Sequence record: OZ346182.1
Direction: 5' to 3' (one strand)
DNA: 64,000 nt
Source of the DNA: a phage
The translations under genes were made by a program, and so were the position numbers. Numbering within the stretch: the first letter of the stretch is position 1; each line of letters opens with the position of its first letter. Shown here one piece after another: positions 47,831-49,398 of the stretch. Under the pieces are notes generated by a model. The model was not told the DNA's origin. It ran no database searches and saw nothing but the letters and a program-made list of their open reading frames with translations.

Positions 47831-48125
47831 GTCTATCCAATCCTCATACAACCCCTTTCCCTTTCCTTTCCAGAATCTTATCAGACCTTAAAAAGCAATA
47901 ACTTTACAGCCTTTTACTAAGTCAATTAATTGGCCTTATTAATAAGCCCTTAAACATAAGCCAATAACCCCAGAAAGGGGGCAACCCATTTAAACGCCAT
48001 ATAAAGCCCTATAACGGCCTTTTTAACCTAACTTAAGGGATTGCATTACCTCACCCTTAAAAGCCCTTTATAAAGCTTCACAGAGCCTTAAAAGAATCTT
48101 ATAAGGGTGTAAGCTTTATTATCTC

Positions 48126-48210
48126 GCTTTTAATTTTTATAAAATTCCATCGGTTGTCCCAACCTCTGGGTCACCAGCATATGTGAACAAAATATCTATC
48201 CTTCTTAACA
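48126..48210. repeat. left arm of ~85 bp near-perfect inverted repeat
   Basis: CGCTTTTAATTTTTATAAAATTCCATCGGTTGTCCCAACCTCTGGGTCACCAGCATATGTGAACAAAATATCTATCCTTCTTAACA; reverse complement found at 49286-49370. Confidence 0.75.
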
Positions 48211-48450
48211 ATCCCTACATAGTTATGCTTTTTAAGGCACTGTTAGCAACTTGTTAGCCCCTTGTTAAATCTCTGTTAAGACCACGTAAAAGCCTTGTAA
48301 GAGTCTTTGACATAGCCTTAAAAGCTCCTGTAAAGCCCTATAAAGAGCTTTCTGTATAGTTGGGGTGTAACTACTAGGAAGAGACTTAAAAGAGCTTACA
48401 AGGAGCTATAGAGAGCTTTTAAGAGGTATGTTTAAAGAATCACTAGGGAT

Positions 48451-48474
48451 TGGTAACAATACCAATTAAGAAGT
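48451..48474. repeat. inner 24 bp inverted repeat, left copy (itself containing palindrome ATTGGTA-ACAA-TACCAAT)
   Basis: CTAGGGATTGGTAACAATACCAAT; reverse complement at 48642-48665. Confidence 0.6.
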
Positions 48475-48641
48475 AAAGGGAACGATAAGAAAAGAGTAGT
48501 GACCATGTTAATAGCTTGTTAAAAAGATTAAACACTTGTTAGGAACTTGTAATTATCTTAACAAAATAACTCTTTAAAATTAACTTCTTAGCTCTTGTTA
48601 GTCATCTGTTAAGATTCTGTAAAGCCTATTCAGCACTTGTT

Positions 48642-48665
48642 AATTGGTATTGTTACCAATCCCTA
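48642..48665. repeat. inner 24 bp inverted repeat, right copy
   Basis: ATTGGTATTGTTACCAATCCCTAG. Confidence 0.6.
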
Positions 48666-49285
48666 GAAAACTGTTAAGCCCTTGTTAGTTCTGTTAAGAA
48701 ACTGTTAAGACTTTTGAAGATTTGTTAAGAGCTTGAGAGAGTTGTTAAGAAATTGTTAAGGATATTTTAAAATTTTGCAAAGTACTTGTAAGGGAGCTGT
48801 TAAGGGCTACCAAGCAGATATACATCTTCTACAGATATTTTTCAGTTCCTTCAAAGACCCTAAAAAATGACTTGATAGTCCTATTTTATAAAAATTTTAA
48901 GATTCTGAATAATTACCTAGACAGTCTTTTAAAAATACAGGTAATAACAGGCTTATAAGATACCTTGTTAGTACCGTGTTAGACCTTGTGAGATAAGGTC
49001 TGTAAAGATATTCCTGTTAAGTTTGTTAAAACAGTCTATATAGAGGCTTAGTAATACCTAGTGAACACCTATAGAGGGTATCATAGCTAACCTAGAGATT
49101 AAGAGGTGTATAGGAGCTTCTAAGAGGGTATAGAGAGATGGTTAAGGTGATTGTATAGGTTGTTAAGAAGGCTTGTTAGAGGGCTTGTTAGAAGGGTTAT
49201 ACAGAGGGCTATTAAGACCACTAGATAGTTACTAAGATACTATATAGTACTATATAACTATATAGAGAGTAAGATTAAGAGGGTT

Positions 49286-49370
49286 GTTAAGAAGGATAGA
49301 TATTTTGTTCACATATGCTGGTGACCCAGAGGTTGGGACAACCGATGGAATTTTATAAAAATTAAAAAGC
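49286..49370. repeat. right arm of ~85 bp inverted repeat
   Basis: Reverse complement of 48126-48210 apart from one T-run length difference. Confidence 0.75.
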
Positions 49371-49398
49371 CCCCAATTAAGGAGGCTCTTAAGATATT

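Follow-up and report, generated by a model that had tools for sequence, protein, structure and literature searches.

What does a phage keep in 1.5 kb of DNA that encodes no protein? The question is raised by sequence record OZ346182.1, 64,000 nucleotides of phage DNA (hereafter the window), in which positions 47831–49398 form a gap dense in short repeats and bracketed by a long inverted repeat, with a second inverted pair nested inside. A reading of the letters alone, here called the original prediction, had offered four roles for this gap: a replication origin with iterons, a packaging or concatemer-junction site with repeats of the T7 type, a protein-binding array or a long non-coding RNA locus. 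Comparison with related phages indicates that the gap is probably the terminal region of a Felix O1-like genome, assembled with a single copy of a direct terminal repeat (DTR) of ~0.6 kb, and that its repeats form an oriented array in phase with the DNA helix.

Mapped termini of relatives fall inside the gap

A megablast search with 47700–49500 matched 257 phage records at 85–93% identity, nearly all from Felixounavirus and related Ounavirinae, and the 201-amino-acid (aa) product of the open reading frame (ORF) that flanks the gap on its right has a counterpart of 100% identity in phage heid. By these matches, the 64-kb window is a Felixounavirus, a Felix O1-like myophage.

Genome ends have been determined for several relatives. 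UAB_Phi87 has a 608-bp DTR, established by Bal31 digestion and run-off sequencing in the same laboratory as UAB_69 (Bardina et al. 2016, PMC4837284); its boundary motifs lie 614 bp apart, at most 6 bp from the experimental value. The 618-bp feature annotated 'DTR' in UAB_69 (GenBank OL656108) maps to ~48175–48813 of the window. PhageTerm gave a 581-bp DTR for Pr103Blw (PMC8303462) and the termini of E9 (PMC11737134), and the E9 and CRP22 records carry exact repeats of 580 and 579 bp at both record ends. At least seven records, Pr103Blw among them, have their first base where E9 does, at or close to the left boundary, ~1.2 kb upstream of the gene for the 201-aa protein. The window sequence is homologous to the DTRs of UAB_Phi87/UAB_69, Pr103Blw, E9 and CRP22 (83–90% identity), which occupy the same place between plus-strand early genes and a minus-strand block; the mapped termini of these close relatives are all inside the ORF-free region. 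We therefore consider the region to be, in all likelihood, the terminal or concatemer-junction region of this genome, and the assembly to be a circular permutation with one collapsed DTR copy. The packaging-site candidate of the original prediction thereby gains support. Its authoring model had also named a collapsed terminal repeat as an outcome that would count against its description, and the window does contain one copy of a ~0.6-kb DTR.

That copy is the DTR homologue at 48202–48811 (plus strand), assigned by homology to the DTRs mapped in relatives. It matches the DTRs of UAB_69, E9 and CRP22 at 82–89% identity, has the same flanking genes and is packed with oriented TGTTAAG-type repeats; a single inverted copy, TTCTTAACAA, stands at the left end. 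Missing from it are the initial ~25 nt together with the left cut.

Each DTR boundary lies in a short, conserved island. In E9 and CRP22, the left cut falls between GTAAATGCTA and GCCCCCTTAACAT (the left cut of relatives is also given as lying between ACGTAAATGCTA and GCCCCCTTAACAT), and the right cut falls between GTTAAGGGCTACC and AAGCAGATATAC. The right island of the window, GTTAAGGGCTACC up to the cut and AAGCAGATATACATC beyond it (48798–48829, plus strand), is near-invariant in 29 sequences from three genera and identical to that of the mapped relatives, whose DTRs measure ~0.58–0.62 kb. It occurs once in the window (48804–48824), placing the cut between 48811 and 48812 by the E9/CRP22 convention or between 48813 and 48814 by the UAB_69 annotation. 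Unlike in the mapped relatives, no left cut island is present in the window, its place being taken by an element from further downstream in inverted copy, a substitution that we take up below.

Conserved islands and a ladder of DTR lengths

Both boundary islands are near-invariant in 24–29 sequences of Felixounavirus, Suspvirus and Mooglevirus, whereas adjoining sequence is variable and contains indels. Across 48202–49400, most 20-nt bins of a 28-genome alignment are at least 90% conserved. One stretch just outside the right cut (48812–48960, plus strand) is conserved across three genera (0.91–0.97 per 20-nt bin) and weakly periodic (periodicity 0.07–0.08). In the virion it would be the unique sequence adjoining the left-hand DTR copy, and it may be a candidate recognition sequence distinct from the repeat arrays.

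Synteny and repeat conservation, which the original prediction had proposed as a check, hold in related phages: an ORF-free gap between convergent genes, with its periodicity and motifs, is kept in four genera. The gap measures 1.7 kb in Suspvirus SUSP1 and 1.6 kb in Mooglevirus Mordin, where terminators are annotated at both edges. Erwinia phage phiEa21-4 (Kolesnikvirus, NC_011811) has a syntenic 1.2-kb ORF-free gap at 16472–17659, with TGTTAAG motifs in its right half. All three share the ~11-bp periodicity and strand-biased TGTTAAG-type motifs, with CTTGTTA in SUSP1 and Mordin. In phiEa21-4 a lineage-specific motif, CTTCTAAG, occupies the left half of the gap, to the left of the DTR (nine copies versus none of its reverse complement). 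Homologues of both cut islands are recognisable in this phage, the AAGCAGATATACA part of the right island being retained, and from these we predict a DTR of ~445 bp.

Predicted DTR lengths in 26 genomes climb in steps: 567–570, 579–582, 591–592, 601–603, 613–614, 623–625, 638 and 658 bp. The DTR homologue of the window, with the missing ~25 nt restored, comes to ~635 bp, in agreement with this 11-bp ladder. Indels follow a similar measure, 17 of the 27 distinct ones of at least 5 nt in the alignment of relatives being 10–12, 21–23 or 32–33 nt long.

A helically phased array of oriented repeats

The repeats were scored with a position weight matrix for a motif of approximately (G/A)C(T/C)TGTTAAGA, using cut-offs of at least 9 and at least 5 bits. 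At the stricter cut-off, 47900–49300 holds 27 sites on the plus strand and 5 on the minus strand, with 1.5 expected per strand; the dozens of degenerate short direct repeats of the original prediction are thus far above chance. The looser cut-off yields 46 plus-strand sites scattered over 1.5 kb. CTTGTTA occurs ten times in the region and its reverse complement not once.

These motifs are oriented units of 8–11 nt, of the TGTTAAG / CTTAAAAG / CTATAGAG family, set one helical turn apart. Autocorrelation of the region peaks at lags of 11, 21 and 32 (period ~10.6–11 bp), and the periodicity score across 47900–49300 reaches 0.227, the strongest in the 64 kb (window mean 0.017, standard deviation 0.033). 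Helical phasing is a feature of the repeats beyond their initial description.

One-orientation repeats are present within the DTR homologue and on both its flanks. The left flanking array (47900–48126, plus strand; periodicity 0.10–0.13) consists of phased CCTTAAAAG / CTATAAAG-type repeats, is homologous to relatives as far as 48126 and in the virion would be unique sequence adjoining the right-hand DTR copy on its inner side. The right flanking array (48960–49280, plus strand), of phased CTTGTTAG / CTATAGAGG / TTAAGAGG-type repeats, is marked out by periodicity, motif sites and conservation. Relatives have two or three inverted motif copies (TTCTTAACAAT) immediately inside the left cut, so that motifs point outward to both cuts. 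In virion geometry, the arrays cover roughly the terminal 1.0–1.2 kb at both ends.

Convergent terminators enclose the region

The coding claims of the original prediction held up. Between 47852 and 49398 no ORF on either strand exceeds 33 aa, well short of the 60 aa said to be absent; the single longer listed ORF (47510–47851, minus strand, 113 aa, TTG start) overlaps a real plus-strand gene and enters the region by only 21 nt. The region does sit at a switch from plus- to minus-strand genes, with both gene blocks converging on it and each terminating in an intrinsic terminator. The plus-strand early-gene block ends at 47803–47830 (stem 47803–47823, 7 pairs, then a T-run), which forms the left edge. 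The right edge is the terminator of the minus-strand block (49365–49390, read from 49390 to 49365; z −2.7 on the minus strand), directly downstream of the 201-aa gene at 49399–50004. A sigma-70 promoter scan of the region returned 9 sites against 7.5 expected, which is chance level and leaves internal promoters unsupported. As convergent terminators close both sides, we take the ~1.5-kb region to be probably untranscribed. The ten flanking ORFs gave no Pfam match above the gathering score, and their PHROGs matches are all of unknown function.

An ORF-free, conserved sequence could also be a long non-coding or small RNA locus, another of the roles first proposed. This is hardly credible here. 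Rfam at the gathering threshold gave no match across 40–56 kb, promoter-like sites are at chance and the terminators face inward from both sides. The 87-nt element that forms the arms of the large inverted repeat, folded alone, is no better than shuffled sequence (z −0.96), and the 11-bp indel quanta, together with strand-oriented 8–11-mers, indicate constraint at the level of DNA.

A probable packaging module with a putative protein-binding array

We regard the region as a likely T7-like module for DTR packaging and cutting, equipped with a phased array that would bind protein. Unit-length genomes would be packaged with short, exact direct terminal repeats, this region being the terminal module. 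The phased motifs would act as a scaffold for the assembly of a multimeric phage DNA-binding factor, possibly the terminase or an unrecognised analogue of its small subunit. The resulting complex may position a nuclease at the two conserved islands, the putative cleavage sites, an integral number of turns apart. In the T7 model, the terminal repeat is duplicated by a nick-and-displace scheme; by that model, cuts or nicks ~0.6 kb apart, followed by strand-displacement synthesis, would give every packaged genome a full repeat.

Several points weigh against this scheme. The termini of this genome are placed by homology to relatives, and its left cut island is not found anywhere in the 64 kb at up to 3 mismatches, so either the sequence is wrong here or the phage cuts differently. 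No binding protein for the array was recognised among the ten flanking genes, and TerL is encoded beyond the window. Common to both islands is an inverted core, ATGTTAAGG(GG)GCTA(G/C)CA (15–16 of 18 positions), which is compatible with, and at most suggestive of, one enzyme acting in opposite orientations; yet this likeness falls only in the top 5–8% of windows in motif-rich DNA, and the cuts are ~4 nt off the core. Three adjacent residue classes modulo 11 account for 13 of the 16 distinct DTR lengths (nominal binomial p ~1e-5), a result to be read as strong, not formal, with the residue class picked after the data were seen and the genomes related to one another. Static curvature was tried as the source of the periodicity and rejected: A-tract phase coherence, our curvature proxy, is 2–4 in the region (window mean 2.25, 99th percentile 4.8), and with A-tract phasing this ordinary the periodicity is driven by the motifs and not by classical bent DNA. 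Finally, the data fit an array that serves packaging, end protection, ejection control or replication alike.

Replication is the role that the original prediction had in mind with an iteron-type origin, where direct repeats bind an initiator and AT-rich DNA melts. The numerous same-orientation repeats at helical spacing would suit such an origin, as would a G+C content of 34% (39% in the 64-kb window) and DNA that appears untranscribed. An origin and a terminus can also be close, T7 having secondary origins at the phiOL and phiOR promoters near its ends. We nevertheless find this reading improbable, and little supports it. Iteron origins have a few 17–22-bp iterons beside a DNA unwinding element, not 46 plus-strand sites of an 8–11-nt motif spread over 1.5 kb. 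A motif scan of the region returned no DnaA box (TTWTNCACA), no integration host factor (IHF) site and no Chi, and no recognisable initiator gene was found among the ten flanking ORFs. The repeats coincide with mapped termini and are quantised with them. GC skew merely tracks gene orientation and is uninformative.

A second rival, which we think unlikely though somewhat less so than an origin, is that the arrays serve the DNA ends after packaging, as sites for an end-protecting or ejection-controlling factor in the style of the T5 injection stop. The placement of the arrays over roughly the last 1.0–1.2 kb of both virion ends is what such a role would call for. The T5 terminal repeat itself is ~10 kb long and encodes the pre-early genes. 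To our knowledge, two-step injection is not a property of Felix O1-like phages, and none is reported in the Felix O1-like phage literature examined; an 11-bp quantised distance between cut sites is more naturally a property of a cutting complex. The T5 injection stop signal is described (10.1101/866236) as a cis site within a large untranscribed portion of the terminal repeat, and this untranscribed, repeat-rich stretch tied to a terminal repeat is the likeness to the present region.

Comparison with known termini and phased repeats

The closest parallel to a packaging module of this kind is the T7 concatemer junction, reportedly set out by Dunn and Studier in 1983 as a 160-bp DTR flanked by the short-repeat arrays SRL and SRR. 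We checked the junction sequence and found eight copies of CCTAAA against none of its reverse complement. Like the region studied here, the T7 junction is non-coding and has one-orientation repeats (CCTAAAG/CATAAAG/CTTAAAG) within the DTR and on both sides of it, and the motif resembles the CTTAAAAG/CTATAAAG class of the window. The two differ in repeat period (13 bp in T7, 10.6–11 bp here), in the extent of the array (~0.25 kb versus 1.5 kb) and in that T7 has the promoters A0, phiOL and phiOR where we find convergent terminators and no promoter excess. T7 is moreover a podovirus with a known small terminase, whereas in Felix O1 TerL is the only recognisable terminase and no TerS has been recognised (PMC3185647).

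Direct repeats one helical turn apart are also found in plasmids and in phage origins. In iteron arrays and in the 11-bp centromere repeats of R1 parC, which ParR binds, such spacing allows an oligomeric protein to cover or wrap the DNA along one face. Compared with these, the present array has an order of magnitude more copies, lacks a recognisable initiator or partition gene alongside as well as DnaA and IHF sites, and coincides with genome termini.

A bolder and rather unlikely extension is that, in phages without a recognisable TerS, the array acts as a 'molecular ruler': a protein polymerising on one-turn repeats would space the cuts in units of 11 bp, which would account for the ladder of DTR lengths. 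On that view, the 21-bp insertion and the 84-nt duplication described below could be by-products of strand-switching synthesis.

The large inverted repeat is private to this sequence

The original prediction took an inverted repeat of ~85 bp to be the boundary of the element. The repeat is real: its arms, 48128–48214 and 49281–49367, are 87 nt long, 99% complementary and 1066 nt apart, and direct alignment shows that 48128–48211 is the exact reverse complement of 49284–49367 (84/84 nt). Its role as a boundary did not survive comparison. The right-hand element (49281–49367), the donor of the left arm, is single-copy in all relatives and 0.89–0.95 conserved; the left arm (48128–48211) is an inverted duplicate found in this sequence alone. 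Among 253 matching phage records, none covers at least 80% of 48080–48260, with matches confined to the flanks. All 19 IMG/VR loci have the right-hand element only, two Logan contigs that share the 201-aa protein and match the window at 95–97% identity on both sides lack the arm, and an exact-pattern search of IMG/VR and JGI metagenomes for both arm junctions gave no match. By these comparisons, the large inverted repeat is not a conserved boundary but is private to this sequence. Our literature search turned up no paper linking Felixounavirus with inverted repeats.

The arm has displaced the left cut. Its 74 new nucleotides (48128–48201), an inverted copy of 49294–49367, stand in place of ~130 nt that every relative possesses between the homologues of 48126 and 48202, and that segment carries the left cut island in each of them. 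The canonical segment contains ACGTAAATGCTAGCCCCCTTAACAT and is ~55 bp longer than its counterpart in the window. At the inner junction, the last 10 nt of the arm are a microhomology, TTCTTAACAA, common to the arm and the canonical sequence; beyond it, the canonical segment has no homology to the arm that might serve as a recombination substrate. An inverted copy of the conserved element 1.1 kb away would thus have replaced the left-cut segment, either in a recent template-switch-type event via TTCTTAACAA in the lineage or during library preparation or assembly.

Could the repeat nevertheless be functional, as the border of an invertible 1.07-kb interior or as a cruciform or stem-loop controlling packaging or replication? 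Its length, its exactness (84/84) and the fact that it brackets the DTR homologue speak for this. The left arm is, however, missing from the 253 records, the 19 IMG/VR loci and the two near-identical Logan contigs, and it removes a near-invariant site. No relative has the interior inverted: wherever a record covers at least 80% of the query (140 records), interior and flanks run collinearly on a single strand. No recombinase family match was obtained for the ten neighbouring ORFs. We judge a functional inverted repeat very improbable.

The left arm is probably either a very recent rearrangement or an artefact, and between these two we are evenly divided. If it were a chimera or an assembly error, the true genome would have the canonical left cut. 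In favour of this, arm and donor are identical throughout (100%) while relatives differ from the window by 4–8% at the donor element, the site removed is conserved across genera, and a 10-nt microhomology at the inner junction is typical of template-switch chimeras. A genuine inverted duplication, for its part, is favoured by two clean junctions within an otherwise collinear contig and by a second, natural inverted duplication in the same genome, that of a 21-bp element, at a site shared with other phages. A viable phage without the left cut site would, on the other hand, require another route to its left end. Beside the same spot, the first 69 nt in the record of Escherichia phage humlepung (MN850564) are an inverted copy of nucleotides lying ~60–130 nt further inward. 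This inverted start, next to the left end of the DTR, resembles a fold-back artefact formed where a contig ends, and we take it as a sign that the junction is prone to misassembly.

A 21-bp palindromic element forms the nested repeat

The nested inverted pair, first described as 24 bp long, also exists; it is longer than stated and consists of two polymorphic insertions. Its arms (48443–48474 and 48635–48666) span 32 nt at 97% complementarity, with 160 nt between them, and each is a 23-bp insertion made of a 21-bp palindromic unit, GGGATTGGTAACAATACCAAT, plus TA. Copy 1, in the left arm (48444–48468, plus strand), has TA on both sides; copy 2, in the right arm (48641–48665, minus strand), is TA-flanked in the opposite orientation. 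The insertion at the copy 1 site is absent from the other 27 of the 28 aligned sequences and is carried by ~11–14 of 189 matching phage records, including VpaE1, phiWec172/174/177 and Andreotti. Copy 2 occurs in 5 of the 28 genomes of the alignment, and three others (L013, L025 and L026) have exact empty sites with a single TA.

Relatives show at least five distinct insertion sites for the element, all inside this non-coding region, with TA on both sides at three of the five; copies in relatives lie at 3936–3956 of L003 and 1646–1666 of L011, and in L015, L022, L027 and L030. In IMG/VR, the unit is matched exactly in seven contigs only, all of Felixounavirus size. The unit contains a 7-bp palindrome, ATTGGTA..TACCAAT. 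Filled and empty alleles both exist, and the unit behaves like a tiny mobile or hypervariable insertion. As a candidate TA-duplicating miniature inverted-repeat element, however, it is only 21 bp long, has no known transposase and keeps to this one non-coding region. The inner inverted repeat would then have arisen by two insertions of this TA-flanked mini-element, at sites that differ between phages. The 23-bp length of each insertion preserves the phase of the array. Neither inverted repeat is part of the terminal machinery.

Implications for annotation and other features of the window

That Felix O1-like phages have DTRs of ~0.6 kb was already known, and the identity of the region is not new. 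In the literature examined (PMC3185647, PMC4837284, PMC11737134 and PMC8303462 among it), we find no account of the helically phased array, the invariant cut islands, the 11-bp ladder or the 21-bp element. For annotation, the 1.5-kb gap of Felix O1-like genomes can be labelled as the terminal-repeat or concatemer-junction region and assemblies opened at the cut islands. The large inverted repeat of the present sequence should be treated as suspect pending reads; more generally, an inverted repeat seen at a DTR junction in a single assembly can be a private event. Typing, biocontrol and therapy all make wide use of Felix O1-like phages, in which no small terminase has been identified. The near-invariant cut islands, the phased, oriented array and the 11-bp length ladder offer handles on how their genome ends are recognised and measured.

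Elsewhere in the window, GATC is absent from all 64 kb, where base composition would predict ~225 sites, and CGCG, CCGG, GCGC, GGCC, TCGA and CTAG are depleted (observed/expected 0.11–0.43), a pattern suggestive of strong selection against sites for Dam or for restriction enzymes. Between 41710 and 47525, about ten copies of an intergenic unit of ~30–95 nt (TAAATTAC..ATCAACGGGGAGGGAATGACCTTCCCCACTAAATAAA..CCTTAAACTAGGAGATTCAAAAATG) precede small plus-strand early ORFs, each comprising a hairpin and a strong Shine–Dalgarno sequence; the unit overlaps with direct repeats already catalogued for the Felix O1 genome (PMC3185647). An array of 25 tRNA genes occupies 58632–63556, and directly upstream of it, at 58460–58620, two TTGACA-containing, promoter-like stretches can be picked out by eye.

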